Shown: positions 8,901-25,998, counted from the stretch's first letter. The stretch: DNA of 32,000 bases from Planifilum fimeticola (GCF_003001905.1 NZ_PVNE01000006.1:81407-113406); one strand, 5' to 3'. Notes: generated from the letters alone by a model not told the origin. A program made the numbers and translations.

Positions 8901-8902
8901 TC

Positions 8903-11468: not shown

Positions 11469-11483
11469 ACGGGTCGATGAGGA

Positions 11484-11530: not shown

Positions 11531-11537
11531 TCGCATT

Positions 11538-12707
11538 TTAATAGTTGACCGCCCGGTAGGCGTTGATCCGCCCTTTGCTCCAGTAGGTCCCCGTTCCGGA
11601 GATCCGGTCGGCGGTGTTTTCGATGGCCGCCCGGATTTGCGATGCACTGCGTCCCTGAGCATCCAGGAGCCCGGCCAGTCCCGCCACGTGGGGCGTTGCC
11701 ATCGAGGTGCCGGACAGGCTGGCGTAGCTGCTGCCCGTGTAGGTGGAGTAGATGTTCACCCCCGGGGCGGCGACATCCACCCAGCTGCCGTAGTTGGAGA
11801 AGGAGGCCTTGTTGTCGTTGCTGTCGGTGGCGGCGACGGCGATGGCGTTGCTGTAGTATGCCGGATAGGAGGGAAGGGACGTCCCGCTGTTACCGGCGGC
11901 GGCCACCACGACAACTCCCTTGTTCCAGGCGTAGTCCACGGCGTTTTTCAGGGTGGTGGCCCCGACCGAAGCACCCAAGCTGAGGCTGATCACGTCGGCT
12001 CCGCTGTCGGCGGCGTGGATGATCCCGTTGGCCACATCATCCAGGGTTCCGGATCCGCTGTTGTTTAACACCCGGACGGCATAGATGGTGGCGTTGGGAG
12101 CCATCCCGGCAATTCCCTGGGAGTTGTTGGTGACGGCGGCGGCGATTCCGGCACAATGGGTTCCGTGCCCGTTGCCGTCATACGGATCCCAGTCGTCATC
12201 CACAAAGTCGTAGCCCCGGACGACTTTTCCGGACAAGTCGGGATGGTCATATTGCACTCCCGTGTCAACGATGGCGATCCAGGTGTCGCTGCTGCTCCTG
12301 GTGACGTCCCAGGCAGCGGGAGCTTGAACCTTTTGGGGCCCCCACTGCCGGCTGGAGAAATAGGGGTCGTTGGGGGTCCACTGGATGGTGTAGATGTAAT
12401 TGGGCTCCGCATATTCGACGTTGGGATTCTTCTCGTATTCCTTGACCGCTTGCTCCACGGATTTGTCTTCAACCTTTACGACATCAAAGCCCAGCTTCGT
12501 GTTGCGGGAGAGGAGCTTTGCCTGCCCATCCTGGTGGGCGGTTTTCATCGCGCTGGCTGATGTGCCCTTCTTAAATTTGACAATCACCTGGTCGGGGGCG
12601 TAAGCCGGCTTGTCCGCCTGAACGGCTGATTCGGCCCCGGCGGCTTGGGGTTGAATCAGGACGATAGCCAGCACCAGCGAGGCGACGATCGCCAACAATC
12701 GCTTCAT
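11538..12707 (-). CDS. secreted S8 subtilase, thermitase-like (paralog A), with signal peptide and I9 propeptide
   Basis: ORF 11538..12743. ATG at 12707 (MKRLLAIVASLVLAIV signal peptide) with AGGAGG upstream. Catalytic triad contexts IAIVDTGV, HGTHCAGIAAA and GTSMATPHVAG. The mature region closely resembles remembered Thermoactinomyces thermitase (YTPNDPYFSSRQWGPQK...GTYWAKGRVNAY). Confidence 0.93.
   Translation of the reverse strand: MKRLLAIVASLVLAIVLIQPQAAGAESAVQADKPAYAPDQVIVKFKKGTSASAMKTAHQDGQAKLLSRNTKLGFDVVKVEDKSVEQAVKEYEKNPNVEYAEPNYIYTIQWTPNDPYFSSRQWGPQKVQAPAAWDVTRSSSDTWIAIVDTGVQYDHPDLSGKVVRGYDFVDDDWDPYDGNGHGTHCAGIAAAVTNNSQGIAGMAPNATIYAVRVLNNSGSGTLDDVANGIIHAADSGADVISLSLGASVGATTLKNAVDYAWNKGVVVVAAAGNSGTSLPSYPAYYSNAIAVAATDSNDNKASFSNYGSWVDVAAPGVNIYSTYTGSSYASLSGTSMATPHVAGLAGLLDAQGRSASQIRAAIENTADRISGTGTYWSKGRINAYRAVNY
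11662..11801. repeat. 140-nt near-identical tract shared with 13469..13608 (paralog conversion tract, copy 1)
   Basis: Hand alignment at a constant offset of 1807 nt shows one mismatch (11734 C vs 13541 T) in 140 nt. Confidence 0.9.
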
Positions 12708-12990
12708 AGAGGCATGACCTCCTCTGGAAGTGGGTTTTATCATTCACCCCGGAGGGGGAATGAACGGAGCATGAACGGGTTTTCCCGACGGCGGACGAAC
12801 GGGAACTGTCGAAACCGTGTTGTCATTTCTTGAGCAGATCGTGGAAGCGAGCCGGTGGTAGGGAGGGGGTGCTGGTCCATGGAGGCGATGAGGAGAGCAG
12901 CGGAGGTGAACCGATCGTGAGGGTGGTGATGGGATGTGATGATGGACGTCGGGATGGAAATCTTTAAATGCCAATCAAATTCCAACAATT

Positions 12991-13019
12991 ATTTTAATAC
13001 AGACTAAAATAAAAATCAA
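12991..13019 (-). promoter_or_regulatory. candidate sigma-A promoter for protease A
   Basis: On the reverse strand: TTGATT (13019-13014), a 17-nt spacer, then TAAAAT (12996-12991), in an AT-rich patch. This would give a leader of about 275 nt. Confidence 0.4.
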
Positions 13020-13284
13020 CAATTAACAGCGAAATTTATCGATGTTTTGCTGTAAAGCACTAAAATCCGAAAGACATATCTCCCGGCAATTCGATCCTGT
13101 GTGCGACGTGCTCGGAAAGAACGTCCTCTGTAGATTTTAGAAAGATCGGGGATCTTTCGGGAATTGCCGATTCGATTTCTCGGGTGTGAAAAACGGATTT
13201 TTTCCGGGTGTATAGAATTAAGAAAAAAGAAGTAATACCCGGGTGGGGTTTCGCATTCAGGCGAGAGAAGGGCGCGGGAAAGAG

Positions 13285-13330
13285 GGAAGAAAGGAAAACC
13301 GGAGGGAGAAATCTTTCCGTCCTCCGGTTT
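13285..13330 (-). terminator. terminator after protease B
   Basis: Reverse strand: AACCGGAGG...CCTCCGGTT stem (13298-13329) followed by TTTTCCTTTCTT. Confidence 0.65.
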
Positions 13331-13344
13331 GCTTCACGGCGCAT

Positions 13345-14520
13345 TTAATAGTTGACCGCCCGGTAGGCGTTGATCCGCCCTTTGCTCCAGTAGGTGCCCG
13401 TTCCGGAAATCGGGTCGGCGGTGTTTTCGATGGTCGCCCGGATTTCCGAAGCGCTACGACCCTGGGCGTCCAGGAGCCCGGCCAGTCCCGCCACGTGGGG
13501 CGTTGCCATCGAGGTGCCGGACAGGCTGGCGTAGCTGCTGTCCGTGTAGGTGGAGTAGATGTTCACCCCCGGGGCGGCGACATCCACCCAGCTGCCGTAG
13601 TTGGAGAAAGAGGCTTTGCTTTCATCGCTGTCGGTGGCGGCGACGGCGATGGCGTTGCTGTAGTACGCCGGATAGGCCGGTTGAGAGGAGCCGTCGTTAC
13701 CGGCGGCGGCCACCACGACAACCCCCTTGTTCCAGGCATAGTCCACGGCTTCCTTCAGGGTGATGGAATCGTTGGGGCTGCCCAGGCTGAGGCTGATCAC
13801 GTCGGCTCCGTTGTCGGCGGCATGGATGATTCCGTTGGCTACATTTTGCAGCGTGCCGGAGCCGCTGTCGTCCAGTACCCGGACGGCGTAGATTTTGGCA
13901 TCGGGAGCCATCCCGGCAATTCCCCGGGTGTTGTTGGTGATCGCGGCGGCGATTCCGGCACAATGGGTTCCGTGCCCGTTGCCGTCATAGGGGTCCCAGT
14001 CGTTGTCGACGTAATCGTATCCCCGGACGACTTTTCCGGACAAGTCGGGATGGTCGTATTGCACTCCCGTGTCAACGATGGCGATCGAGGTGTTGCTGTC
14101 GCTTTTTGTCACATCCCAGGCGGCGGGAGCCTGGACCTTTTTGGGCCCCCACTGCAGATCGGGGAACAGGGAGTCGTTGGGCGTCCACTGGGTGGTGAAA
14201 ATGTAGTTGGGTTCCGCGTATTCGACGTCGGGGGACTTTTCATACTCCTTAATCGCTTCTTCCACGGACTTGCCCTCGATTTTCACCACGTCAAAACCGA
14301 TCTCTTTGTTGTGGAAGAGAAGATCCGTGTCCAACTCCAGATGGATGTTCAGGGTCAAACGGGGCTCGGCGTTTTCCTTGAATTTGACGATGACTTGATC
14401 AGGTGCGTAGGATAGCTTGTCCGATGAGCCTTCTTTTTCGGCTTCCGCGCCGGCCGATGGCGGATGGATCAAAACGAACGCCATGAATAGGGCGGCGGCC
14501 ATTTTCCACAAGCGTTTCAT
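13345..14520 (-). CDS. secreted S8 subtilase, thermitase-like (paralog B)
   Basis: ORF 13345..14553. ATG at 14520 (MKRLWKMAAALFMAFVL) with AGGAGG 6 nt upstream. Same D/H/S motif contexts as paralog A. The C-terminal residues GTGTYWSKGRINAYRAVNY are identical. Confidence 0.93.
   Translation of the reverse strand: MKRLWKMAAALFMAFVLIHPPSAGAEAEKEGSSDKLSYAPDQVIVKFKENAEPRLTLNIHLELDTDLLFHNKEIGFDVVKIEGKSVEEAIKEYEKSPDVEYAEPNYIFTTQWTPNDSLFPDLQWGPKKVQAPAAWDVTKSDSNTSIAIVDTGVQYDHPDLSGKVVRGYDYVDNDWDPYDGNGHGTHCAGIAAAITNNTRGIAGMAPDAKIYAVRVLDDSGSGTLQNVANGIIHAADNGADVISLSLGSPNDSITLKEAVDYAWNKGVVVVAAAGNDGSSQPAYPAYYSNAIAVAATDSDESKASFSNYGSWVDVAAPGVNIYSTYTDSSYASLSGTSMATPHVAGLAGLLDAQGRSASEIRATIENTADPISGTGTYWSKGRINAYRAVNY
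13469..13608. repeat. 140-nt near-identical tract shared with 11662..11801 (copy 2)
   Basis: See copy 1. The two genes are tandem, with an 1807-nt period measured stop codon to stop codon. Confidence 0.9.
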
Positions 14521-14807
14521 GCGATACCTCCTCCGGGAAACCCTTTCGTTCATCCCTACGCAATGGAATGGGGATTTAAGGACTTGAAAAGAAATAAAAG
14601 ATTTCTATCAAATAGAAAAACGTATGGAAGTACCGGCGGGTTTCGGGATCGATATTGGTATCTTATTCCGTTTTGTCTGAGCGGGGCGCGGAAAGGGGGG
14701 TTGGATGAGGAGGGCGGCGTTTTGGGATTTACAAAAAGGAACCTGATTTTCCAAACGGCGGTGTCGCGCCGGTGGAAAACCGGTTCCCGATCACAAATTC
14801 GGCCATG

Positions 14808-15821
14808 TTATTCGGTCACTTTGAGGAGGGCGACCGCTCCTTTTTGGGCGTGATGGAACTGGTGAGTCACGATGGGATAGATCCCCGCCTCTTTGACGGT
14901 GAACTCCACCACCGCTCCGCCGCTTGCCGGCAGCATGACGGTTTGCATGCCCCTCAAGCGGTTGTCGGGGTTTCCATCCCGGTACACGTCATCAAATACG
15001 GTTCCGACGACGTGGAACGAGCTCACGTGGTTGGGGCCGACGTTGTTTACGTAAATGCGGATTTTTTCCCCGACTTTGGCTTCCAGGGGCTTCTCTTTCA
15101 GGCTGTAGGTGGTGCCGTTGGTATTGGGATCTCCCTTTTTCAGGGCCTTGGTGGAGAAGACCACGTAATCGGGCTGGCCGTCGGTCATGTCATCCAGGTT
15201 GTTGTTGGCGTACCATTCGTTCTGGATCAGGGTGAATTCGCGGTCCACCTGTGGGTCGGTGGGATAGCCGTCCTTCGGCTTCACGATAATCACGCCGTGC
15301 ATGCCGTTGGCGATGTGCTGAAGCACCGGATCCGTTCCGCAATGGTACATGAATACCCCCGGACTGCTGGCCTGATAGGTGAAGGTTTTACTCCGATTGG
15401 GCGCGATGTTGATGAACTTCTTGGATGGAGCCGCGTGGACGGCGTGGAAGTCCATGCTGTGGGGCATCGCGGGGTCAAGGTTTTTCAGGGTGAATTCTAT
15501 CGTGTCTCCTTCCCTGACGACGATGAGGGGGCCGGGAGCTTGCCCGTTGAAGGTCCAGGCCTTGTAGGTCACTCCCTTGTCGATTTCGATGTCGGTCACT
15601 TGGGCGGTCATTTCGACTTTCACCCGATGAGCGCTTGTTCGCTCGATTTTGACGGGGGTGGGTTTCTGGTTGACGTCGCGGTGGGCGGGCATCACTTGAT
15701 TCGCGGCATGGTCCGGAGAGGCGGTTTTTTCGGCGATGTCCGACTCGGAGGGGCTTCTGCAACCGGCCAACATACCGGCGGCGAGGACGACCGACAGAAG
15801 GGCGACGAAGGTTTTGTTCAT
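14808..15821 (-). CDS. nirK: copper-containing nitrite reductase NirK, lipoprotein form
   Basis: Signal peptide plus lipobox (LAGC). Cupredoxin domains with type-1/type-2 Cu ligand contexts HSMDFH, YHCGTDPVLQHIANGMHG and HQFHH. 337 aa. AGGAGG SD at 15836-15831. Confidence 0.9.
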   Translation of the reverse strand: MNKTFVALLSVVLAAGMLAGCRSPSESDIAEKTASPDHAANQVMPAHRDVNQKPTPVKIERTSAHRVKVEMTAQVTDIEIDKGVTYKAWTFNGQAPGPLIVVREGDTIEFTLKNLDPAMPHSMDFHAVHAAPSKKFINIAPNRSKTFTYQASSPGVFMYHCGTDPVLQHIANGMHGVIIVKPKDGYPTDPQVDREFTLIQNEWYANNNLDDMTDGQPDYVVFSTKALKKGDPNTNGTTYSLKEKPLEAKVGEKIRIYVNNVGPNHVSSFHVVGTVFDDVYRDGNPDNRLRGMQTVMLPASGGAVVEFTVKEAGIYPIVTHQFHHAQKGAVALLKVTE

Positions 15822-15837
15822 CGCACACGACCTCCTC

Positions 15838-15855
15838 TTGTGATATTATTCACAA
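15838..15855. promoter_or_regulatory. perfect Fnr/Crp-type palindrome TTGTGATATTATTCACAA in the nirK leader, abutting the SD
   Basis: TGTGA-N6-TCACA with flanking TT/AA symmetry. It ends 2 nt upstream of the nirK SD complement. Confidence 0.6.
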
Positions 15856-15900
15856 TTAGATTCAGGGGATAAAGGTTTATTTATAGCCCCTTTCGCCTTC

Positions 15901-15943
15901 ATCATAATTGAAACAATCAGCCTTATTGTGATACAGGACACAA
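15901..15943 (-). promoter_or_regulatory. nirK class-II-like promoter: box TTGTGATACAGGACACAA plus a -10 TATGAT
   Basis: Box at 15926-15943 (TGTGA-N6-ACACA, centre 15934.5). Reverse-strand TATGAT at 15906-15901, 28.5 nt from the box centre. Confidence 0.55.
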
Positions 15944-15984
15944 ATCCGCTTTTTCGTTACAAATCTTTCGAAGATTGGTCTTGA

Positions 15985-16010
15985 TAAAAAACCCGCGGAC
16001 ATGCCGCGGG
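15985..16010 (-). terminator. rho-independent terminator after the qNor gene
   Basis: Reverse strand: CCCGCGGCATGTCCGCGGG hairpin followed by TTTTTTAT. Confidence 0.8.
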
Positions 16011-16032
16011 AAGAAACGGTGACATCGGTTTT

Positions 16033-18369
16033 TTATTTGATGGAATCTCCGTCCTTCACGGTGGAGGGACGCAGGCGGAAGAGCGATTTGACGGCGAACC
16101 ATGCCAGTGGCAGCACGCCGAAGACGATGAAGATCGTGTCGGGAAGGATGCGCCACCACAGCAGCGTCCGAACGACGGGTTCCTGGTAGAATCCGGGGTC
16201 GCGGGCCGCCCAGAACCCGACCTGATAGGATTCGGCCAGCTGCAGGATTCCGACGGGGAGCAGCGTGATGAGAATCATGCCCGCCAAGCCGATGTTGAGC
16301 CCCCAGCAGGAGATCTTGAGGATGCGGTCGTTCCAGGCTTCCGGCTTGACGATGTTGCGCAGGGTGTAGAGCAAGACGGCGACGGCGAACATGCCGTAGA
16401 CCCCCATCAGCGCTCCATGGCCGTGGGCCGGTGTCAGGAAGGAGCCGTGCTGATAGTACGACACCGCCGGGAGATTGATCAGGAAGCCGAGCACCCCTGC
16501 GCCGACGAGGTTCCATACGGCCGTGGAGATGAGGAACCAGAAGGCCGCCCGGTACGGAAAGGATACGCCGCCCTGTTTCATGATCCGGTAGTGTCCGTAG
16601 GCTTCCAGGATGAGCAGCGTGAGCGGGATCACTTCCAGCGCCGAGAACACCGCGCCGAGGCCGATCCAGATCTCCGGGGCGCCGATCCAGTAATAGTGGT
16701 GACCGGTTCCGATCACCCCGCTGCCGAGCAGGAGGATCAGCTGGAAGTACAAGGCGCGAACCGTCGATTTTTTGGTGACGAGCCCCATCTGCACGAGCAG
16801 GAAGCCGATGACGACGACGGCAAAGACCTCGAAGATGCCCTCCACCCACAGATGGATGATCCACCAGCGCCAGTAATCGGCGTAGGTGATGTTGCTGCCG
16901 GGGTTGAAGAAGAAGGCGAAGACGTAGAAGACCGGCACGGCGACGGCCGAGTAGAACAACAGGTGCACCAGGCCGCCCTTGTCCGTTTCCTCTTTCAACG
17001 TGCGGCGCAATCCGCGGTAGACGATGAACAGCCAGATGAACATGCCGATGGCCAGAATCACTTGCCACAGGCGTCCGAGCTCTAGATACTCCCATCCCTG
17101 ATGGCCAAACAGGAACCACAGGTTGCCCAGGTATCCCTTCACACCCAGCCATTCGCCGATCATGCTGCCGGCGACCAGGATCACGAGGGCCCAAAACAGG
17201 AGGTCCGTCAGGAGACCCTGCCGTTTCGGCTCGCGTCCTCCGACGAGCGGAGAGATGTAAATTCCCATGCCCAACCAGGCTGTCGCGATCCAAAAGATGG
17301 CCAGCTGCAGGTGGTATCCCTTGGCGATGTTGAAGGGGAGGATGTCGGCGATCCAATCCAGGCCGAAGAAGGAATCCGGTTCAATGTAATAGTGGGCGAG
17401 CAGCGCCCCGAACATCACCTGGACGAGGAACAAAACCGCCACGACGGCGAGATATTTGCCGGTTTTGCGCTGGCTCGGGGTGATCGGCAGGGCTTCCAGG
17501 TTGTAGCGTGGGAATCGGCCTTCGGAGTAGGCCTCTTGCATATCCAGCTTGTAGCGATGGTAGAAGTAGAGGATGAGCGCAGTGAAACCGATCAGGAGGG
17601 CCGTGCTGGCTGCGCTCCACCAGATGGATGCGAAGGTCATCGCGTTGCCCGCATCTTCGTCATAGGGCCAATTGTTCGTAAAAGTATGGGTTTCGCCCGG
17701 GCGGTTGACGCTGGAAAGCCATGCGGTCCAGAAGAAAAAGTCGGCGATTTGCGTCAGCTGATCCCCCTCCGCCACCCAGGCGCGGCCGGTATCCGGCATG
17801 TGCTCTTCCCGGATCAGGCCCGGCAGAATCCCGCGTCCATCCCCCTCCGTGAAGACGGTTCGGTAGTGCTTTCGCACCTTCTGAAGGGCGTGTACCTGGG
17901 CGTCGGTGAGAGTGAGGATGTCGGCATCGGGATCGTACCGGTTGACCTTGATTTCTTCTTTCACCTTTTCTCTAATGAGGGATTTTTCCGATTCGTTCAA
18001 CCGGGCGAAGGGCTTTCCAAAATCCTGTTTGGCATGGTAATCCTGCATCTCCGTGACGACGATGTGAAGCGCCTCCGTGGTGTAGTCCGGACCCAGATAG
18101 GAACCGTGACCGAGCACCGATCCGTAGTCCATCAACCCGTATTTCTGGTAAACGGCCTGACCGCCCTTGATCTGCTCGGCGGTGGTGATCACGTCTCCCG
18201 AGGGGCTGATCACCTTCGCAGGGCGGGGGGCCATCGATTCATAAACCCAATATCCCCCGACGAGGAGGACGGTGAAGCTGACGATGAGCGTGACGATCAG
18301 AATCTGCTTCAACAGGTTCCCCTTAACCGTCGAGGTTTTCTGAGGGGATGTTCGAAGCTTCGATTTCAT
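16033..18369 (-). CDS. norZ: quinol-dependent nitric oxide reductase (qNor, single-subunit NorB/NorZ type)
   Basis: 778 aa. An N-terminal TM segment plus a periplasmic extension is fused to a 12-TM heme-copper-oxidase-like core with many conserved His (HGHGALMG, HHYYWIG, IIHLWVEG). The length fits qNor rather than the 450-aa cNor NorB. SD GGGAGGA lies 7 nt before the ATG at 18369. Confidence 0.9.
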   Translation of the reverse strand: MKSKLRTSPQKTSTVKGNLLKQILIVTLIVSFTVLLVGGYWVYESMAPRPAKVISPSGDVITTAEQIKGGQAVYQKYGLMDYGSVLGHGSYLGPDYTTEALHIVVTEMQDYHAKQDFGKPFARLNESEKSLIREKVKEEIKVNRYDPDADILTLTDAQVHALQKVRKHYRTVFTEGDGRGILPGLIREEHMPDTGRAWVAEGDQLTQIADFFFWTAWLSSVNRPGETHTFTNNWPYDEDAGNAMTFASIWWSAASTALLIGFTALILYFYHRYKLDMQEAYSEGRFPRYNLEALPITPSQRKTGKYLAVVAVLFLVQVMFGALLAHYYIEPDSFFGLDWIADILPFNIAKGYHLQLAIFWIATAWLGMGIYISPLVGGREPKRQGLLTDLLFWALVILVAGSMIGEWLGVKGYLGNLWFLFGHQGWEYLELGRLWQVILAIGMFIWLFIVYRGLRRTLKEETDKGGLVHLLFYSAVAVPVFYVFAFFFNPGSNITYADYWRWWIIHLWVEGIFEVFAVVVIGFLLVQMGLVTKKSTVRALYFQLILLLGSGVIGTGHHYYWIGAPEIWIGLGAVFSALEVIPLTLLILEAYGHYRIMKQGGVSFPYRAAFWFLISTAVWNLVGAGVLGFLINLPAVSYYQHGSFLTPAHGHGALMGVYGMFAVAVLLYTLRNIVKPEAWNDRILKISCWGLNIGLAGMILITLLPVGILQLAESYQVGFWAARDPGFYQEPVVRTLLWWRILPDTIFIVFGVLPLAWFAVKSLFRLRPSTVKDGDSIK

Positions 18370-18407
18370 CCCGTCTTCCTCCCATCCTTTGGTTTTAGGG
18401 CGATTCC

Positions 18408-18453
18408 AGTATAGGATGAGACGGAAGGGATACTTGTGACTCCCGTCACAAGT
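18408..18453 (-). promoter_or_regulatory. qNor class-II-like promoter: 22-bp palindrome ACTTGTGACTCCCGTCACAAGT plus a -10 TATACT
   Basis: TGTGA 18435-18439 and TCACA 18446-18450 (centre 18442.5). Reverse-strand TATACT at 18413-18408, 29.5 nt from the centre. Confidence 0.65.
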
Positions 18454-18502
18454 TTTAACGTGTTAACCGATTTGACACTTGTTGTTCAAGGATGACGCCC
18501 CG

Positions 18503-18546
18503 GATTTGACACAATTCACAGTCGGGCTCGCAGGTACGCTTACAAT
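18503..18546 (+). promoter_or_regulatory. promoter of the LpdD-like gene: box TTTGA-N6-TCACA plus a -10 TACAAT
   Basis: GATTTGACACAATTCACAGT (18503-18522, centre 18512.5). TACAAT at 18541-18546, 28.5 nt from the centre. Confidence 0.5.
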
Positions 18547-18630
18547 GGCAGAGGACCCCGGCTGCGCCTTCTTCAGGATGAAGGGGGAACCGACGCCGGA
18601 GTTGCGATTGTCTGTGGAGTAAAGGTCGGG

Positions 18631-19005
18631 ATGGTCGGGAGGTGTTGGTGCTTGGTGACTCGTCCGATCCGCATTCGCCTGCGCACCGTTCCGGTGGGAA
18701 CCGATCTCGCCGTGTTGATCACCGGCGGTCGGGAGCACATCGGGGCGGTGGCCACGGCTTATCGGGAGGGGGACCGGGTCAAGGTGGAAACGCACGTCCT
18801 TCCGGGGCATCGGGAGGGGGATTTGGCGGCGGAGACGGCCCGCATGGCGGCTTTATCCCTGAAATGCACCGTCACCGTTGCCATGGGGATTCACCAGGAC
18901 GAGGCGACGCGGGAGGAAATCGACGAGATCGTCAGGACGGTGCGCCGGTTGATGGAAGAAGAGCTGAGGCGCAGAGCATGTGGAGGGGCGGAGGGGCGTT
19001 CATGA
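18631..19005 (+). CDS. small LpdD-like / PAC2-fold-like protein (family assignment from memory, uncertain)
   Basis: ORF 18631..19005. An alternative TTG start at 18652 lies 7 nt after GGAGGTG. DLAVLITGGREHIGAVATAY and TVAMGIHQDEATREEIDEI resemble the remembered LpdD pattern (DLLIVVTGG..PHIG.V ... GIH...I). Confidence 0.6.
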   Translation: MVGRCWCLVTRPIRIRLRTVPVGTDLAVLITGGREHIGAVATAYREGDRVKVETHVLPGHREGDLAAETARMAALSLKCTVTVAMGIHQDEATREEIDEIVRTVRRLMEEELRRRACGGAEGRS

Positions 19006-19095
19006 CGGGAGAGCAGGAGATATCTTCCGGGAAGGGAGACGGGAGCCGTCGCTTTCGTTTCGCCTGCCTTCCTGTTTTCATCGGGATTCGCGCCG

Positions 19096-19139
19096 GTGTG
19101 ATGTTCGTCACGTTTTTCGTGGCGCCTCCTTCCTAAAAT
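19096..19139 (+). promoter_or_regulatory. hemerythrin-gene class-II-like promoter: box GTGTGATGTTCGTCACGT plus a -10 TAAAAT
   Basis: TGTGA 19097-19101 and TCACG 19108-19112 (centre 19104.5). TAAAAT at 19134-19139, 29.5 nt from the centre. Confidence 0.6.
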
Positions 19140-19169
19140 AAAGGCAAACGAGACAAGGAGGGAAGGGTG

Positions 19170-19715
19170 ATGGATATCGGACCCGGCTGTGGGATGATGG
19201 GTTTCGCTGAAGCCTCCGGTCCCCTCTGCGCAGGCTTGGAACGGTTGAAAAGAGAACACCCGCCGCTTTTGAAGCAGATGGAGGAGTTGGCGGATTCGGC
19301 CCGAGGGTTCGCTGGCGATGCCGGAAGCGGGGGATGGAAGGAAGCCCTGCGCTCCCTGGAGGAACAGGTTCGTTCCTTCACGGCCGAGTTGGATCTCCAC
19401 TCGAAGCGGGAGGAAGATGTCCTGTTTCCGATGATGGCCAAATATATCGGACGGGAGACGGGGCCCATCGCCGTGATGGAATACGAACACGAGCAAGCCA
19501 AGGCGCGCCTGTCCGAGTTCCTCTCCGAAGTGGAGAAGTTCGACGAGTCCGCCGGGGCGGATGCCGCCCGGAGGATCGCCGGTGAGGTGGAGACGGCCGT
19601 GCAGATCTTGACGGACCATTTTATGAAGGAGGAGAACGTGCTCTTTCCGATGGCGGAGCGCATCCTGTCCGATGCGGAAAAGGAAGAGCTTCTGGAGAGG
19701 GTTCAGGCGATTTGA
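19170..19715 (+). CDS. hemerythrin/HHE cation-binding domain protein (DnrN/ScdA/YtfE-like di-iron protein)
   Basis: ATG at 19170 lies 8 nt after AAGGAGG. Repeated H..E motifs (LKREHPPLL, LHSKREEDVLFP, MEYEHEQA, LTDHFMKEENVLFP) are typical of the hemerythrin HHE domain. Such proteins are commonly linked to NO stress and denitrification loci. Confidence 0.8.
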   Translation: MDIGPGCGMMGFAEASGPLCAGLERLKREHPPLLKQMEELADSARGFAGDAGSGGWKEALRSLEEQVRSFTAELDLHSKREEDVLFPMMAKYIGRETGPIAVMEYEHEQAKARLSEFLSEVEKFDESAGADAARRIAGEVETAVQILTDHFMKEENVLFPMAERILSDAEKEELLERVQAI

Positions 19716-19724
19716 CTGCAAGGA

Positions 19725-19766
19725 AAGCGGCGCATGCCGTCGAGGATGCGCCGCTTCAATTTTTTG
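19725..19766. terminator. terminator between the convergent hemerythrin and fnr genes
   Basis: AAGCGGCGCAT / ATGCGCCGCTT stem with a 10-nt loop, then CAATTTTTT. Confidence 0.7.
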
Positions 19767-19784
19767 ACGGGGAATCTCGGAAAT

Positions 19785-20495
19785 TCAGATGATACATACG
19801 TTTCCGGGGCAGCGGCCGTCACAGTGGCACAGCTTTCGGAGGCGGTTCAGATCGTGGATGATCAGCCTGCCGGACCGCATGCTGAGGATGTGTTCCCTTT
19901 TCATCCGGCTCAGCATGCGGTTGACGCTTTCCCGGGTGGCGCCGATGAAGTTGGCCAGATCCTGGTTGGTCAGCCGCATGGGGATCAGGATGCCCTCCTC
20001 CGTCCTTTTGCCGCAGGTGTTGCAGAGGCGGATCAGGGTGGAGGCGAGCGCCCCGGTTTTGCCGTATACCAGGAGATCGCGCATTTTGGTCTCCAAAATC
20101 CGCTGGTTGACGGTGAGCCACTGGATGAACCGGATGGCCAGGTCGGGGTGGCGGAGCAGCAGGGCCTCCAATTCCTCCTTGTGGATGACGCCGAGGAACG
20201 CATCCGTCAAGGTGACGGCGTTGCTCCACTGGAAGGGGGACGGGAGCGTGCAGGGATCACCGACCAGGTCTCCGGCGTACTTGAGGGAGAGCGCGATTTC
20301 CTCCCCGCTTTCGGTGTTGTTGAAGATCTTGACGATCCCCTCATGGATGAAGTAGAGATAATCGGCTTGTTCTTTGTCCTGGAACAAGTTGATGCCGCTG
20401 TTCACCCTTTTGGAGGTCATCAGTGAGCTCAACCGCTTCAGCTGCTCCGGTTGGAAATAGTCGACAAACCGATGGGCGGACACCGCGGAAGTCAT
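19785..20495 (-). CDS. fnr: Crp/Fnr-family regulator, Bacillus-type Fnr with a C-terminal Cys cluster
   Basis: ORF 19785..20633. ATG at 20495 lies 7 nt after AGGAGG. cNMP-binding-like domain, an HTH (TNQDLANFIGATRESVNRMLSRM) and a C-terminal CHCDGRCPGNVC motif. This recalls the C-terminal [4Fe-4S] ligands of B. subtilis Fnr. Confidence 0.85.
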   Translation of the reverse strand: MTSAVSAHRFVDYFQPEQLKRLSSLMTSKRVNSGINLFQDKEQADYLYFIHEGIVKIFNNTESGEEIALSLKYAGDLVGDPCTLPSPFQWSNAVTLTDAFLGVIHKEELEALLLRHPDLAIRFIQWLTVNQRILETKMRDLLVYGKTGALASTLIRLCNTCGKRTEEGILIPMRLTNQDLANFIGATRESVNRMLSRMKREHILSMRSGRLIIHDLNRLRKLCHCDGRCPGNVCII

Positions 20496-20549
20496 GGGGA
20501 ATCCTCCTCTCCGTTTGCGCAGGAAGCGGAATGGTGAAGGTTTTGCGAA

Positions 20550-20594
20550 ACTGTGATATTTGTCACGATGAAGGGGTGAGTCCTGGGTTACGAT
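20550..20594 (+). promoter_or_regulatory. ywiC-like gene promoter: box CTGTGATATTTGTCACGA plus a -10-like TACGAT
   Basis: TGTGA 20552-20556 and TCACG 20563-20567 (centre 20559.5). TACGAT at 20589-20594, 29.5 nt from the centre. The box lies in the divergent fnr/ywiC-like intergenic region. Confidence 0.5.
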
Positions 20595-20656
20595 GAGAAC
20601 AGAACAAACCCCGAGGCACGGCGGGATGCTCATTTTGAAGACTGGAGGAGTCTGCG

Positions 20657-21394
20657 ATGAAACCGATCCTTCCGAGGGAACATGGCGGATGGGCCATGGT
20701 ATCCGTCCCCTTTCTCCTTGGCATGTTCGTGGGTGGGCCCAAATGGTTGCATCTTCCGCTGTTTTTCGGATGGATGCTGTTTTACCTGGCGGCCTATCCC
20801 TTCCGCCTGGCGCTGATGCGGCGGAAAGATCGGCGCAATTTTGTCCGTTGGGCGCTGATTTATTGGGCCCTGGGGATGGTTTTCCTGATCCCCCCGCTCC
20901 TTTGGGAGCCTTCGCTGTTATGGGCGGGCCCCGTGCTGGCCGCGTTGTTCTGCATCAACGGGTGGTACGCGTACCGGCGAAACGAGCGTTCCTTCGTCAA
21001 TGACCTGTGCGCCATTCTCGCCTTTTCGGTCGGCGGTGCGGCCGCCCACATGGTCGGAGCCGGGAGTTGGGACGCCATGGCCCTGTGGGTTGCGGTGCCG
21101 TGTATCCTGTACTTTTTGGGGAGCGTCTTTTTTGTCAAGTCGGTGTTTCGGGAGCGCAAAAACGAAAGATGGCTGATCGCCTCAAAGGGATATCACCTGC
21201 TGCTCCTGATCCTGACGGCTCTCCTGGAGCCCTGGTTCGTCCTGCCCTACGCTTTTTCGGCCTTCAGGGCCTTCTTGTGGGGCGGAAAGACGATCCGTCC
21301 GATGAAGGTGGGAATCATCGAGATCGTCGGATCGTTGCTCTTCCTCGTCCTTTCCATCATCGCTTTTTCCGCCACTCGTCCGCCCACGATTTGA
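20657..21394 (+). CDS. YwiC-like integral membrane protein
   Basis: SD GGAGGAG before the ATG. The N-terminus PREHGGWAMVSVPFLLG matches the remembered YwiC-like signature. About 8 TM segments. In B. subtilis, ywiC lies beside fnr/arfM/nar and is Fnr-controlled. Confidence 0.75.
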   Translation: MKPILPREHGGWAMVSVPFLLGMFVGGPKWLHLPLFFGWMLFYLAAYPFRLALMRRKDRRNFVRWALIYWALGMVFLIPPLLWEPSLLWAGPVLAALFCINGWYAYRRNERSFVNDLCAILAFSVGGAAAHMVGAGSWDAMALWVAVPCILYFLGSVFFVKSVFRERKNERWLIASKGYHLLLLILTALLEPWFVLPYAFSAFRAFLWGGKTIRPMKVGIIEIVGSLLFLVLSIIAFSATRPPTI

Positions 21395-22067
21395 GGGCTT
21401 CCACATCCTTGAGGACGATATGGTTGCGGTTCATTTCCAAAATGCGCTGGCGGCGCAAATCGTTGAGCATGCGGTTGACGCTCTCGCGGGTGGTTCCCGC
21501 CATGCTGGCCAGGTCCTGGTGTGTGACGGGGAGCCGGAGCACCACCGTTCCGTCCTGGGTTGTTCCGTGGGTTTCGGCCAGCCGCAGGAGGATGGCGCAG
21601 ATGCGGTGGCGCACATCCTGGTAGGTGAGTTCCTGCAGCTTTTCTTGCAGCTCGCGGATTTTTGCCCCCAAAACCCGCAGTACCTTCACCGCGATGGTGG
21701 GAGTGGACAGCAAAAGCTGCTCGAAGGATTGGATGGGAATCGCGAAGACGCGGGTGGGCTTGACGGCTTCGGCGTTGGCGGGGTAGGGGCTCTGATCGAA
21801 GAATCCCGTGTGGGGGAACATGTCCCCCTTGGCCAGCAGGGAGACGATCTGCTCATGTCCGTTGGCATCCACCTTAAAGGCTTTGACGAGCCCGTCGACG
21901 ATGAAATAGACGGCTTCGCGCGGGCTTCCCTCCGCGAAGATGAGCGATTTCTTCGGGTAGGAGCGCGGGATCGCGATGGAAGCGATCCGTTCCAGCTCTT
22001 CGTCGGTGAGATCCAGAAACAGCGGCACATTGCGGAGAAGAGGGACCAATTGAGACAAGTCCATCAC
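21357..22067 (-). CDS. Crp/Fnr-family regulator, second paralog without a Cys cluster
   Basis: 236 aa. cNMP-binding-like domain (LFLDLTDEELERIA...YFIVDGLVKAF) and an HTH (THQDLASMAGTTRESVNRMLNDL). It contains a single Cys. The start is ambiguous (GTG 22067, ATG 22064 or TTG 22058 relative to GAGGTG). Confidence 0.85.
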   Translation of the reverse strand: MMDLSQLVPLLRNVPLFLDLTDEELERIASIAIPRSYPKKSLIFAEGSPREAVYFIVDGLVKAFKVDANGHEQIVSLLAKGDMFPHTGFFDQSPYPANAEAVKPTRVFAIPIQSFEQLLLSTPTIAVKVLRVLGAKIRELQEKLQELTYQDVRHRICAILLRLAETHGTTQDGTVVLRLPVTHQDLASMAGTTRESVNRMLNDLRRQRILEMNRNHIVLKDVEALKSWADEWRKKR

Positions 22068-22137
22068 CTCGATGGATCAAAATTGGGACAACCGCCCGAC
22101 CGGGGGCTGTGCCCGGCGATGTCGCAAATCTTCCGCT

Positions 22138-22170
22138 AAGACCTGATGTCCGCAAAGACTTGATGTCCGC
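22138..22170. repeat. tandem 17-bp direct repeat AAGACYTGATGTCCGC x2 in the crp2/radical-SAM intergenic region
   Basis: AAGACCTGATGTCCGC at 22138-22153 and AAGACTTGATGTCCGC at 22155-22170. One mismatch. Confidence 0.7.
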
Positions 22171-22218
22171 TCATGACGGAGTGTTTGGTTTCATTGTACC
22201 CCAACGATTCAGGGGAGA

Positions 22219-22262
22219 GTGTGACGAACTTCATACTGTTTTTCCAAAGACTTTGTTACGTT
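22219..22262 (+). promoter_or_regulatory. weaker Fnr-type box GTGTGACGAACTTCATAC plus a -10-like TACGTT ahead of the radical SAM gene
   Basis: TGTGA 22220-22224 and TCATA 22231-22235 (centre 22227.5). TACGTT at 22257-22262, 29.5 nt from the centre. Confidence 0.35.
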
Positions 22263-22346
22263 GTGAACAAACAGGATTTCCCGTTTCGGTCCCGCCGGGA
22301 CGGGAAAACAGGGCGTCGTTATCCCTTTCATAAGGAGGAATCCCTT

Positions 22347-23447
22347 TTGATTGACTTTCACCAATCTCCCTTTCTGGTCATCTGGGAAGTGACTCGTGCC
22401 TGCGCCCTCAAATGCCTCCATTGCCGGGCCGAGGCGCAGTATCGTCGGGATCCCCGCGAGTTGACGACGGAAGAGGGGAAAGCCTTGATTCGCGAGATTC
22501 GCGATTTGGGCGCCCCCCTGCTGGTCTTCACCGGCGGCGATCCGCTGATGCGGGAGGACCTCTTTGAGCTGGCCGAATACGCCAAAGGGCAGGGGCTGAT
22601 CGTATCGCTCACGCCCAGCGCCACCCCGCGGGTGACGGAGAAAGCGATGCGCCGGGCGATGGAGGTGGGGCTCGACCGATGGGCCTTCAGTCTCGACGGA
22701 TCGACGGCGGAGATCCATGACGCCTTCCGCGGCACGTCCGGATCCTACGACCTGACCATGCGCGCCATCGGCATGCTGCGCAAGCTCGGGATGCCGCTGC
22801 AGATCAACACCACCGTCAGTCGCTACAATCTCGACGATCTGCCCGACATTGCTCGCCTGCTCGAAGAGATGGGCATCGTGCTGTGGAGCGTCTTTTTCCT
22901 CGTGCCCACCGGCCGCGGCAAGGCGGACGACATGATCACCGCGGAGGAGCATGAGCGGGTGTTCCACTGGCTGGCCGATCTCTCCGGGCGCGTCCCCTTT
23001 GACATCAAGACGACGGCGGCGCCTCCCTACCGCCGCGTGATAATGCAGCGGGAGAAAATGAAGAGCGGTCCGGGAGCGGCGGCCGGTGCTCCTCCCTGGG
23101 TGGCCGGGCGCCAACGGCAGTTGCGGGCACCGCGCGCCGTCAACGACGGCAACGGTTTCGCCTTCGTTTCCCACATCGGCGATGTGTATCCCAGCGGCTT
23201 TTTGCCGATCGCCTGCGGGAACGTGCGGGAGCGCTCCCTCACGGAGATCTATCGGACGCACCCGACCTTTGTCTCCCTGCGCGATCCGGAGCGGCTGAAG
23301 GGAAAGTGCGGGGTGTGCGAGTTCCGTTCCGTCTGCGGGGGATCCCGGGCCCGTGCTTACGCCGTGACCGGCGATCCCTTGGAGAGCGATCCGACCTGCG
23401 CCTATGTGCCCCGGGAGTGGTCGAAGCGGGCGGCCAGTTCTTCGTAG
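22347..23447 (+). CDS. radical SAM/SPASM-domain enzyme (NirJ/AhbD-like class, exact function unknown)
   Basis: ORF 22173..23447. TTG start at 22347 lies 7 nt after AAGGAGG. CALKCLHC is a CX3CX2C radical SAM cluster motif. The C-terminal Cys-rich region (CGNVRE..., CGVCEFRSVCGGSRARAY, CAYV) is consistent with a SPASM domain. Confidence 0.85.
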   Translation: MIDFHQSPFLVIWEVTRACALKCLHCRAEAQYRRDPRELTTEEGKALIREIRDLGAPLLVFTGGDPLMREDLFELAEYAKGQGLIVSLTPSATPRVTEKAMRRAMEVGLDRWAFSLDGSTAEIHDAFRGTSGSYDLTMRAIGMLRKLGMPLQINTTVSRYNLDDLPDIARLLEEMGIVLWSVFFLVPTGRGKADDMITAEEHERVFHWLADLSGRVPFDIKTTAAPPYRRVIMQREKMKSGPGAAAGAPPWVAGRQRQLRAPRAVNDGNGFAFVSHIGDVYPSGFLPIACGNVRERSLTEIYRTHPTFVSLRDPERLKGKCGVCEFRSVCGGSRARAYAVTGDPLESDPTCAYVPREWSKRAASSS

Positions 23448-23620
23448 AGGGAGGCAACCGGGCCGATCGCGTCGCTCCGTTCGGGGTTTGACGGGTTTCC
23501 GCCGGAGGAATGGATAAGTGTGACGGTCGAATCCCTTGGTTTTTGCAGCTGTTGTCTCAGGTTTCTTGAACGGAATGGTCGTTTGAGTTCGCCCCACATT
23601 TCCAAAGGGGGGAATCCGGG

Positions 23621-25021
23621 ATGAAATTGCTGGCCGTGACCGCTTGTCCGGTAGGGATCGCGCACACGTACATCGCCGCCGAAAAGCTGAAAAAGGCGGC
23701 GGATGAAGCGGGCCATACCATCAAAGTGGAAACCTGGGGATCCATCGGCGTGGAAAACGCCTTTACACAGGAGGAGATTGAGGAAGCGGACGGGGTGATC
23801 CTGGCGGCGGACAAGGATGTGGACAAAAGCCGCTTCCGGGGAAAGCGGGTGCTGGAATGCTCCGTTCAGGATGCGATCCACCGCCCGGAGGAGTTGATCC
23901 GGCGATTGGTCGACGGAGAAGTTCCCGTCTTCGGGGCCCCGGAACGGGAAGAGCCGAAACGGGAGGAGTCGCCGGTTGAAAAGGCCGAATCCGGTCGTTC
24001 CTTTTACCGCCACCTGATGAACGGCGTTTCTTACATGATCCCCTTTGTGGTGGTGGGCGGTTTGTTGATCGCCCTGTCCCTCGGCTTCGGGGGAAAAGCG
24101 ACGCCGGAAGGGTTTGTGGTGCCCGACGATTCCATCTGGAAGCCGGTTCTGGCAGTGGGCGAAACCGGATTTTTGTTCATGGTGCCCATCCTGGCCGGAT
24201 ATATCGCCTACAGCATTGCCGACCGTCCGGGTTTGGCACCCGGCATGATCGGCGGCTACATTGCGGCCGACGGGAGCTTTTATGGCAGCGAAGCGGGGGC
24301 GGGATTCATCGGGGGGATCATCGCCGGGTTTCTCGCGGGCTATCTGGCCAAAGGCATCCGTTCAATACCGGTGCCCAAGGTGATTCAGCCCATCATGCCC
24401 ATCCTGGTGATTCCGCTGGTCACGTCCCTTCTGACGGCTCTCCTGTTTATCCATGGGATCGGCGCCCCCATTTCCGGGATCATGTCGGCGATGACCGAGT
24501 GGCTCCACGACATGCAGGGGGCCGGCAAAGTGGCGCTGGCTTTGGTCCTGGGAGCGATGATCGCCTTTGATATGGGCGGTCCGATCAACAAGGTGGCCTT
24601 TTTGTTCGGAGCGGCGATGATCGGGGAGGGACAACCCTTCATCATGGGGGCGATCGCTCCGGCGATCTGCACCCCTCCTCTCGGAATGGGGCTGGCCACG
24701 CTGCTGGCCAAGAGGAAATATTATCCCGAGGAATGGGAAGCGGGCAAGGCCGCCCTGGCCATGGGGATGGTCGGCATTACGGAAGGGGCGATCCCCTTTG
24801 CATCCCGCGATCCCCTCCGCGTCATTCCGAGCATCATGATCGGTTCCATGGCGGCGTCAGTCATCGCCATGTTGGGAGGCGTGGCCGATCACGTTCCCCA
24901 CGGGGGGCCGATCGTGGCCTTGTTCCAGGCCGTCGATCATGTCCCGATGTTTTTCGTCGCCATCCTGGCGGGGACCGTCGTGACGGCATTCTTGGTGAAC
25001 GCCTTGAAGAAAAACGTCTAG
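23621..25021 (+). CDS. PTS fructose-family transporter subunit IIBC (no IIA domain)
   Basis: The N-terminus MKLLAVTACPVGIAHTYIAAEKL is a fructose-type EIIB with an active-site Cys. A flexible linker follows, then a roughly 340-aa polytopic EIIC. 466 aa. Confidence 0.9.
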   Translation: MKLLAVTACPVGIAHTYIAAEKLKKAADEAGHTIKVETWGSIGVENAFTQEEIEEADGVILAADKDVDKSRFRGKRVLECSVQDAIHRPEELIRRLVDGEVPVFGAPEREEPKREESPVEKAESGRSFYRHLMNGVSYMIPFVVVGGLLIALSLGFGGKATPEGFVVPDDSIWKPVLAVGETGFLFMVPILAGYIAYSIADRPGLAPGMIGGYIAADGSFYGSEAGAGFIGGIIAGFLAGYLAKGIRSIPVPKVIQPIMPILVIPLVTSLLTALLFIHGIGAPISGIMSAMTEWLHDMQGAGKVALALVLGAMIAFDMGGPINKVAFLFGAAMIGEGQPFIMGAIAPAICTPPLGMGLATLLAKRKYYPEEWEAGKAALAMGMVGITEGAIPFASRDPLRVIPSIMIGSMAASVIAMLGGVADHVPHGGPIVALFQAVDHVPMFFVAILAGTVVTAFLVNALKKNV

Positions 25022-25028
25022 CATCAGA

Positions 25029-25055
25029 AACCCGGCCGAAATACGGCCGGGTTTT
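25029..25055. terminator. bidirectional terminator between the PTS IIBC gene and clpP
   Basis: AACCCGGCCG / CGGCCGGGTT stem with loop AAATA, then TTTT on the + strand and TTTCT on the - strand. Confidence 0.8.
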
Positions 25056-25070
25056 GAATGCCATCCTTGC

Positions 25071-25667
25071 TCACGATTTTTTCGGAGGGTGGTCGAGGAT
25101 CTTGTCGATGATCCCGTATTCCTTGGCTTCCTCCGCGCTCATGAAGTAATCGCGGTCCGTATCCTTCTCGATTTTTTCCAGCGGTTGACCGGTGTGTTCG
25201 GACAGCAGCTTGTTCAGGCGGTCTCTCATGCGCAGGATCCGCTTGGCCCGGATTTCGATGTCCGAAGCCTGTCCTTCCGCTCCGCCCAGGGGCTGGTGAA
25301 TCATCACTTCGCTGTTGGGGAGGGCAAAGCGTTTTCCCCTGGCCCCTGCGGAGAGCAGGAAGGCACCCATGGAAGCGGCCAGTCCGACGCAGATGGTCTG
25401 CACGTCGGGTTTGACGTGTTGCATCGTGTCGTATATGGCCATGCCCGCGCTGATGGATCCGCCGGGGGAATTGATGTACAGGTAAATGTCCTTTTCCGGA
25501 TCTTCGGCGGCCAGGAAGAGGAGCTGGGCAACCACGAGGTTGGCCACCTGATCGTTGATGGGGGTGCCCAAGAGGATGATCCGGTCCTTGAGAAGGCGGG
25601 AGTAGATATCGTAGGATCGTTCGCCGCGACTGGTTTGTTCAATGACGATGGGAATCATTGTGGACAT
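25071..25667 (-). CDS. clpP: ATP-dependent Clp protease proteolytic subunit
   Basis: [34 protein letters not shown] is near-identical to the remembered B. subtilis ClpP N-terminus. Catalytic Ser context [15 protein letters not shown] lies 9 nt upstream. Confidence 0.97.
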
Positions 25668-25804
25668 GGGTTGCTTCCTCCTTGGATGGCAGGGTTGAAT
25701 GAGGCTGTGACAAACCCTGCATGTGAGGGGCCGCCCCTTCGCCCCGTCCGGGGGCGCCGGGCGGGATGTTTCGTTTCACCCCGCTTTGTCATCGCCTCAC
25801 TATC

Positions 25805-25835
25805 ATCATATCCCCAAAGATCAAAAAAGGTCAAG
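25805..25835 (-). promoter_or_regulatory. clpP sigma-A promoter overlapped by a CtsR operator
   Basis: Reverse strand: TTGACC (25834-25829), an 18-nt spacer, then TATGAT (25810-25805). On the + strand, GATCAAA-AAA-GGTCAAG (25819-25835) matches the CtsR heptad direct-repeat consensus (A/G)GTCAAA-NAN-(A/G)GTCAAA with one mismatch per heptad. Confidence 0.65.
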
Positions 25836-25856
25836 ATTCAATTGGAACAAAACGAC

Positions 25857-25886
25857 AAACGGCAGCCGATTCATCGGCTGCCGTTT
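25857..25886 (-). terminator. terminator after tRNA-Arg
   Basis: ACGGCAGCCGA / TCGGCTGCCGT hairpin. The reverse strand continues TTTGTCGTTTTG. Confidence 0.7.
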
Positions 25887-25896
25887 TGCTCCAATG

Positions 25897-25971: not shown

Positions 25972-25998
25972 ATGCTGTGTTTGCCAGCGACAGAGTAT

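Follow-up and report, generated by a model that had tools for sequence, protein, structure and literature searches.

Crp/Fnr-type sites in a nirK/qNor island of Planifilum fimeticola and their predicted use by two paralogous regulators

To our knowledge the regulation of denitrification has been well worked out in proteobacteria and hardly at all in Gram-positive bacteria. Here we analyse a window of 32,000 nucleotides from Planifilum fimeticola (GCF_003001905.1, NZ_PVNE01000006.1:81407-113406, one strand, positions counted from its first letter), which carries a nirK/qNor island with genes for a copper nitrite reductase, a quinol-dependent nitric oxide (NO) reductase and two Crp/Fnr-type regulators, Fnr1 and Crp2, and a set of palindromic boxes of the form TGTGA-N6-TCACA. 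A first-pass annotation of this stretch had used six such boxes, each at a fixed spacing from a -10-like hexamer, to tie nirK, qNor and several uncharacterised genes into a single Fnr-type regulon.

The closest described counterpart is the Fnr regulon of B. subtilis (narK-fnr, narGHJI, arfM), with which the island shares the TGTGA-N6-TCACA motif and, as predicted from hexamer spacing, the class II position of its sites; the motif is listed in RegPrecise as the Fnr motif of Bacillus and Paenibacillus (bioRxiv 10.1101/2020.01.03.894683). The C-terminal ligand set of three cysteines and one aspartate that holds the [4Fe-4S] cluster of B. subtilis Fnr (C227/C230/C235/D141; bioRxiv 10.1101/2020.01.03.894683; PMC8139620) is likewise present in Fnr1, and ywiC adjoins fnr in both organisms. 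The island differs in that its targets are a true denitrification pair, nirK and qNor, in that no nar or narK gene occurs in the window and fnr1 is not downstream of narK, and in the addition of a cysteine-less paralog with the same recognition helix. Also close is the gene cluster of the B. licheniformis group (nar/radical SAM/arfM/membrane protein/fnr1/narK/fnr2/qnorB/dnrN; PMC4719734; our loci L005 and L039), in which ywiC, radical SAM, fnr1, fnr2 and qnorB already lie together, and which has the TIGR04053, YwiC, Fnr1-type, Crp2-type ("fnr2"), qNor and hemerythrin-domain families in common with the island. The published work covers the genes of that group and draws the cluster without sites (PMC4719734); we found boxes there before ywiC/arfM, narK, qNor and dnrN. 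The group has neither nirK nor the LpdD-like gene, and its hemerythrins are a two-domain ScdA/DnrN and a DUF438-hemerythrin-PAS protein, whereas that of the island has a single domain.

Two Crp/Fnr paralogs that share one type of box, TTGAT-N4-ATCAA, make up the ANR-DNR system of Pseudomonas, and the same holds for FnrP and NNR of Paracoccus. The likeness to the island, where these roles are predicted, consists of an Fe-S oxygen sensor combined with a cysteine-less nir/nor factor whose own gene is boxed; the differences are the box sequence and Crp2 itself, which is not a DNR ortholog and not a member of the DNR family. By analogy, a circuit like ANR-DNR in its two-regulator layout would be the simplest model for the island. 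In Desulfovibrio, HcpR is another Crp/Fnr protein without a cysteine cluster, with the motif wTGTGAnnnnnnTCACAw at nitrosative-stress genes (PMC1274295); it differs from Crp2 in its targets (hcp, frdX) and its lineage, and we note the likeness without a claim of orthology. The motif and geometry of Bacillales Fnr-type sites are thus already catalogued (RegPrecise) and are here applied to a nirK/qNor island; within a limited coverage of the literature we found no published account of a Crp/Fnr-qNor regulon, of a Crp2-qNor pairing or of a crp2 self-box in Bacillales.

Boxes, promoter geometry and conservation

When no more than one mismatch is allowed, TGTGA-N6-TCACA occurs at seven sites in the window, all of them intergenic and confined to 6.4 kb (15839-22235). 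In dinucleotide-preserving shuffles the count averaged 0.46 and never exceeded 3, and none of them (0 of 100) reached seven. All six boxes of the first-pass annotation are present, and their coordinates were correct on direct reading as well as in the pattern search; the list had missed a perfect seventh box at 15839-15854, although the region it claimed, from 15838, reaches this box. A position weight matrix trained on 82 sites from other genomes, and on none from the window, ranked the seven boxes first to seventh (25.5, 20.1, 19.5, 17.0, 16.1, 12.5 and 11.9). The next-best score in the window scan was 9.1 and the flanks hold no full box, in agreement with the earlier remark that nothing comparable occurs there. 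The boxes of the island are a real and conserved set of predicted Crp/Fnr-type regulator sites, but one of a fairly ordinary kind for the switching-on of anaerobic respiration genes in Bacillus-like bacteria.

Each of the six boxes originally listed is accompanied, on the strand that faces the gene, by a TAnnnT hexamer whose first base is 28.5 or 29.5 nt from the centre of the box (Table 1), and every -10-like hexamer that had been named was found at that distance. The background rate of TAnnnT in the intergenic DNA of the island is 0.0075 per position per strand, and six out of six would therefore arise by chance with a probability of about 1e-11. With the hexamer at -12 to -7, a spacing of 29.5 nt puts the box centre at -41.5; Fnr sites of B. 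subtilis reportedly sit at -41.5/-40.5, a placement said to come from Reents et al. in 2006. A consensus scan found no sigma-70-type -35/-10 pair at any of the boxed promoters, which fits dependence on an activator and would be expected if the latter took over the -35 contact. When 95 non-redundant boxes of related Bacillales loci were pooled, TAnnnT was concentrated in one sharp peak at 29.5 nt (60 occurrences), compared with roughly 1-11 at each of the other offsets from 12.5 to 49.5.

The nearest relative, L170, has the same island architecture with only ~50% intergenic identity, and in a pairwise alignment the boxes and -10 hexamers of qNor, hemerythrin, ywiC, crp2 and radical SAM stand as conserved islands. 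In a qNor scan that took one genome per species (80 loci, 33 of them from Bacillales or close relatives), 30 of the 33 have a box (one mismatch or none) no farther than ~170 nt upstream of qNor, mostly ~40-100 nt from the start codon. Hemerythrin genes are boxed in four other lineages (L084, Hydrogenibacillus; L086, Brevibacillus ginsengisoli; L170; L173), ywiC is preceded by a box in L005, L039, L065 and L170, and a separate box precedes the radical SAM gene in L006 and L039; in B. haynesii this gene immediately follows arfM in the same orientation, and arfM is preceded by a box. Checked in related loci, box position thus recurs in other genera before qNor, nirK, hemerythrin, ywiC, radical SAM and crp2, and this recurrence, the peak at 29.5 nt and the matrix from other genomes together uphold the class II-type reading.

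In Neobacillus, Mesobacillus and the B. licheniformis group we also observed extra boxes (L010 12558 and 17113; L005 3994 and 13180), which precede a DUF2249 gene, a CuA-type NO reductase/oxidase pair (COX2+COX1), ScdA/DnrN and a DUF438-hemerythrin-PAS gene. Judged by these neighbours, the predicted Bacillaceae box regulon is broadly NO-related.

Two boxes lie before nirK, which has its own promoter, since a strong intrinsic terminator with 7 G-C pairs and a T run separates it from qNor. The distal box has the predicted class II position, and among 14 closer relatives of nirK from a metagenome scan (57-98% identity) the upstream boxes have TAnnnT at 28.5/29.5 nt in 12 and at 30.5 nt in one, the remaining contig being too short. 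The proximal box, which has the highest matrix score in the window, has its centre 25.5 nt ahead of the nirK ATG and its end 1 nt away from the ribosome-binding site, and lies at about +47 relative to the inferred transcription start, with a -10 hexamer at class II distance on neither strand. The same two-box layout is found in L090 (NirK 98% identical; box at 280-295) and L091 (77%; 2143-2158), whose nirK promoters have TATGAT/TAATAT at 28.5 nt; across the two-box loci the centres are 87-88 bp apart, with 25.5 nt from the proximal one to the ATG, while spacers and flanks differ. More distant nirK genes have the class II box only. The proximal box is accordingly a conserved non-activating site, most likely a brake or operator that limits nirK expression and NO production.

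The box at 22220 had been described as a weaker site of the radical SAM gene. It is indeed present and weak, with TACGTT at the expected distance, but first of all it is the conserved promoter box of crp2: in 16 of the 19 loci that have a crp2 homolog on the strand opposite qNor, the homolog is preceded by TATGA-N6-TCAC(A/T), and TACAAT or TAAAAT follows this box at exactly 29.5 nt. L170 retains both of the hexamers that flank this box, which probably works in both directions.

Two regulators and a proposed circuit

Both Crp/Fnr paralogs that had been placed inside the island were recovered by Pfam, and they are 28% identical to each other. The C-terminal cysteine cluster of Fnr1, CHCDGRCPGNVC, aligns with the C-x2-C-x4-C of the narK-linked B. 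haynesii Fnr with one extra residue, and the RDLL aspartate is kept; Fnr1 is therefore most likely an oxygen sensor that would act via a predicted oxygen-labile [4Fe-4S] cluster. Exact copies of Fnr1 were found on three metagenome contigs only, with identical gene order. A longer, 282-aa form of fnr1 that would engulf box 20552 was considered and rejected, as L170 does not keep the additional stretch in frame and the alignment of other Fnr proteins begins at the shorter start.

Crp2, which presumably lacks the cAMP-binding Arg-Ser pair when set against the E. coli CRP sequence, belongs to a clade that accompanies qNor: its homologs (36-46% identity) directly adjoin qNor in 25 of the 33 loci, and a pair of Fnr1-type and Crp2-type regulators is also present in B. 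haynesii, B. sonorensis, Brevibacillus ginsengisoli and L170. Fnr1 and Crp2 have the same recognition helix, R-E-S-V-N-R, of which the R, E and R (R-E-x3-R) are invariant in 10 aligned homologs and correspond to CRP R180/E181/R185; across the Crp/Fnr family R180/E181 track with G3/A6 of TGTGA-type motifs (PMC1274295). Having R-E-x3-R in common, both regulators should read the same box. Because the helices are identical, the boxes are not assignable to one or the other by sequence, and a single regulon looks the same as a cascade from an oxygen sensor to a second sensor.

Beside Crp2 we noted the presumed ArfM of B. haynesii (155 aa, L005 5232-5699), an open reading frame (ORF) without a Pfam match whose identity is presumed from the position of arfM in the published cluster (PMC4719734). 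It has 23% identity over 134 aa to the Crp2 sensor domain, with a weak pairwise E-value of 1e-4 for an alignment that includes KGDVFP/KGDMFP, and may be a relative of the Crp2 clade that lacks the helix-turn-helix.

We give a probability of roughly 0.8 to the reading that the seven boxes are sites of the island's dimeric Crp/Fnr regulators, six of them predicted to serve class II activation of denitrification genes. In such a circuit a box would be centred ~40.5-41.5 nt upstream of the inferred start at six promoters, and also at that of crp2, which shares box 22220; it would substitute for the -35 element, RNA polymerase relying on the bound activator. The activated set would comprise nirK, qNor, hemerythrin, ywiC, crp2 and the AhbD-like radical SAM gene and, less certainly, the LpdD-like gene, and activation would be expected when oxygen is absent and nitrogen oxides are respired. 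Fnr1 would provide the oxygen-sensing input and Crp2, with a box on its own promoter, a second input related to nitrogen oxides; in a manner resembling ANR and DNR, crp2 would be switched on by Fnr1, by Crp2 or by both. The proximal nirK box would act as a brake on NO production.

A larger reading can be put forward only tentatively, and we hold it to be possible rather than probable: that the Crp2 clade is the missing nitrogen-oxide-responsive activator of Gram-positive denitrifiers, evolved independently of DNR/NNR. As parts of it, Crp2 may use the CRP-type box and amplify its own synthesis via the conserved low-affinity TATGA-N6-TCAC(A/T) class II promoter, it may together with Fnr1 control a set of uncharacterised putative accessory factors of denitrification (PF21758 LpdD-like, single-domain hemerythrin and YwiC), and nirK may be restrained by a second, leader-located operator that limits NO production.

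Alternative readings of the boxes

Several observations weigh against class II activation by two regulators, or against parts of that scheme. The two weakest boxes, at 22220 (12.5) and 18505 (11.9), score near the best sites of shuffled windows (mean 10.8); weak by score alone, they draw on geometry, and 22220 also on conservation. As annotated, the LpdD-like box is present with its hexamer at 28.5 nt, but it has the lowest score and is missing in L170, where a canonical TTGACG-17-TATAAT promoter stands instead. Box 20552 has no class II hexamer toward fnr1. Among solved structures Crp2 resembles neither DNR nor CooA more closely than it does CRP (DNR, 3dkw, gives 67.8 bits, below CRP-like chains at 99 bits), a histidine near its G-x-M-F-P motif that could be a candidate ligand is not invariant, and we infer its sensor role from gene neighbourhood only. 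In a one-regulator alternative Fnr1, as the oxygen sensor, would alone occupy all boxes, as in B. subtilis, with Crp2 having other targets or modulating Fnr1, for example in heterodimers. TGTGA-N6-TCACA is the documented Bacillales Fnr motif (bioRxiv 10.1101/2020.01.03.894683), a single Fnr suffices in B. subtilis, and the ywiC, arfM and narK boxes of B. haynesii adjoin an Fnr1-type gene. We nevertheless consider control by Fnr1 alone unlikely, given that the recognition residues of Crp2 match those of Fnr1, that Crp2 adjoins qNor even at loci without an Fnr1-type gene within 10 kb, and that crp2 possesses its own conserved class II box.

The boxes, or at least the nirK-proximal one, might instead be operators of the NADH-sensing repressor Rex, whose consensus TTGTGAAW4TTCACAA (PMC2883068) is also compatible with TGTGA-N6-TCACA. 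Rex operators, which in Firmicutes regulate genes of anaerobic respiration, share outer half-sites and spacing with the island boxes; the proximal nirK box, TTGTGATATTATTCACAA, departs from the consensus by 1 mismatch, is the sole Rex-like site in the window, and lies downstream of the inferred start, where a repressor would suit. The remaining six boxes have 4-7 mismatches, and Rex was rejected as their binding factor (6 of the 7); the box family favours T6 and A11, as the matrix from other genomes shows, the opposite of the A6/T11 of Rex. Even at the proximal position the L090 and L091 boxes, with 2 and 3 Rex mismatches by hand count, look Fnr-type; the fixed -41.5 geometry without a -35 element points to activation rather than to a repressor such as Rex, and no rex gene occurs within the window. 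Rex control is on these grounds very improbable. We give still less credit, and practically none, to the idea that the boxes are random palindromes or copies of a dispersed repeat without a regulatory role. It finds some footing in the loss of enrichment when two mismatches are allowed (11 sites against 7.6 expected, the four additional ones without supporting context), from which we conclude that the signal resides in the near-perfect sites. It is opposed by the shuffles at one mismatch, by the intergenic location and fixed -10 geometry of the boxes, and by the keeping of box position across genera while spacers and flanks diverge.

Genes of the island and their relatives

The island spans ~7 kb (Table 1), serves the conversion of nitrite to nitrous oxide and has a box ahead of nearly all its genes; its GC content does not set it apart (0.54-0.61). 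Its flanks are housekeeping in nature: a TPR protein, a thioredoxin-reductase-like protein, WhiA, two S8 proteases, PTS-fructose, ClpP, sigma-54, CggR, GAPDH and PGK. The island lies, with the two S8 proteases and a TM2 protein, between the trxB-like/WhiA side (552-14553) and the PTS-fructose-to-PGK side (23621-31298).

Table 1. Positions of the boxes, -10-like hexamers and genes of the nirK/qNor island (distances are from box centre to hexamer start)
Feature	Position	Strand	Sequence or family	Remarks
nirK, copper nitrite reductase	14808..15821	-	Pfam Cu-oxidase_2/_3	lipoprotein signal (…LAGC)
nirK-proximal box	15839..15854	.	TGTGATATTATTCACA	perfect; found by pattern search; matrix 25.5
nirK -10-like hexamer	15901..15906	-	TATGAT	28.5 nt (distal box)
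nirK distal box	15927..15942	.	TGTGATACAGGACACA	class II position
Intrinsic terminator after qNor	15992..16010	-		
qNor, quinol-dependent nitric oxide reductase	16033..18369	-	Pfam NorB_cytochrome_c-like + COX1	
qNor -10-like hexamer	18408..18413	-	TATACT	29.5 nt; kept in L170
qNor box	18435..18450	.	TGTGACTCCCGTCACA	core of 22-bp palindrome 18432-18453, 9-bp arms
Box before LpdD-like gene	18505..18520	.	TTTGACACAATTCACA	weakest site, matrix 11.9
LpdD-like -10-like hexamer	18541..18546	+	TACAAT	28.5 nt
LpdD-chaperone-like protein, 117 aa	18652..19005	+	Pfam PF21758	TTG start
Hemerythrin box	19097..19112	.	TGTGATGTTCGTCACG	
Hemerythrin -10-like hexamer	19134..19139	+	TAAAAT	29.5 nt
Single-domain hemerythrin (HHE) protein, 181 aa	19170..19715	+	Pfam PF01814	
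Fnr1, Crp/Fnr regulator	19785..20495	-	PF00027, PF13545, PF00325	C-terminal cysteine cluster, RDLL aspartate
fnr1-ywiC intergenic box	20552..20567	.	TGTGATATTTGTCACG	class II geometry toward ywiC only
ywiC -10-like hexamer	20589..20594	+	TACGAT	29.5 nt
YwiC-family membrane protein	20657..21394	+	Pfam PF14256	141 bits
Crp2, Crp/Fnr regulator	21357..22058	-		no cysteine cluster; conserved G-x-M-F-P motif; qNor-accompanying clade
crp2 -10-like hexamer	22193..22198	-	TACAAT	29.5 nt; kept in L170
crp2/radical SAM box	22220..22235	.	TGTGACGAACTTCATA	bidirectional (probable); toward crp2 reads TATGAAGTTCGTCACA
Radical SAM -10-like hexamer	22257..22262	+	TACGTT	29.5 nt; kept in L170
Radical SAM/SPASM protein, AhbD-like	22347..23447	+	TIGR04053	
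PF21758 relatives in other loci	L084 6001-6357; L172 6733-7062; L086 6001-6327; L170 4244-4555; L175 425-763		PF21758	

NirK scores 215 bits on TIGR02376, below the cut-off of 296, and is therefore of a divergent Gram-positive type; the best match of qNor (74%) is to Thermoactinomyces intermedius. Between the qNor box and the LpdD-like promoter lies a 21-nt block (GATTTGACACTTGTTGTTCAA / GATTTGACAYTTGTTGTTCAA, 18469..18489) that differs by one base in L170 (about 4006-4026), where the surrounding intergenic DNA is ~50% identical, and that no other locus of the set contains; a further regulator may bind there.

The LpdD-like protein, whose start codon was taken from gene calls on identical contigs, scores 98.7 bits on PF21758 (cut-off 27), with a best match of 68% to Hydrogenibacillus schlegelii. 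Relatives of this gene form the fifth, translationally coupled gene of narGHJI in Hydrogenibacillus and L172-L174 (in two lineages it overlaps narI by 4 nt), adjoin a boxed hemerythrin gene and the regulator pair in Brevibacillus, run divergently from qNor in L170 and lie upstream of nosZ-nosD in L175, while only more distant homologs are found in unrelated contexts. Among the called genes of the related loci and the identified genes of the window there is no gene for a UbiD-type decarboxylase, the lpdB/lpdC partner. These contexts suggest that the PF21758 clade has an unrecognised accessory role in denitrification. The ~100-nt leader of the gene (18553-18651; about 4100-4200 in L170) contains the conserved stretches GCCTTCTYC-GGRTGAA…CCGACGCCGG. 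A riboswitch was considered here and dropped, since the predicted fold of the leader is no more stable than that of shuffled sequences (z = -0.06). The leader has no Rfam match, and when 14500-24000 was scanned against Rfam with E values up to 1 the only two hits were sub-threshold and attributable to chance.

The hemerythrin protein has PF01814 alone, with no ScdA_N domain found by Pfam, and it reaches 42-54 bits on the YtfE/RIC/DnrN NCBIfam models, which is sub-threshold (cut-offs 205-300); in relatives its gene accompanies nar, narK and LpdD-like genes. A 44-aa ORF called on identical metagenome contigs (19002-19136) overlaps the hemerythrin box at 19097. It is probably spurious, as tblastn finds it nowhere beyond the window's own contigs, and in L170 no such gene is called and the stretch aligns poorly; a terminator-like hairpin lies inside it at 19038-19050. 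Further along, ywiC and crp2 are convergent and their 3' ends overlap by 38 nt (21357-21394), with an identical overlap in L170 (6972-7009).

The radical SAM protein is a member of TIGR04053 (507 bits, cut-off 395), the sister family to AhbD, and reaches 365 bits on the AhbD model TIGR04545, short of the cut-off of 500. AhbD homologs of Gram-positive bacteria with the coproporphyrin pathway have been proposed as the oxygen-independent coproheme decarboxylase, or anaerobic haem synthase (PMC13564367), an enzyme that a 2024 paper described as still unknown in Bacillaceae (PMC10965808). An AhbD-like radical SAM protein makes sense in an anaerobic regulon that builds haem-b enzymes. The first-pass annotation had concluded that the regulon includes genes with no known role in nitrite or NO metabolism. 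The phrase "no known role" was an overstatement, for one protein is AhbD-like, another distantly RIC/DnrN-like, and the clustering of these genes is known. By neighbourhood and predicted co-regulation the LpdD-like, hemerythrin, ywiC and radical SAM genes appear consistently tied to nitrogen-oxide respiration.

These findings do not overturn current understanding; the Crp2 clade, the putative nirK leader operator and the denitrification link of PF21758 are leads that are modestly new. What the island and 30-odd related loci offer is a compact and testable wiring diagram, with one motif, one geometry, two regulators of the same predicted specificity and a second regulator that is itself boxed. 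They also link four poorly understood families, YwiC, TIGR04053 AhbD-like, single-domain hemerythrin and PF21758 LpdD-like, to anaerobic nitrogen-oxide respiration, and the radical SAM link bears on oxygen-free haem synthesis in coproporphyrin-pathway bacteria (PMC10965808, PMC13564367).

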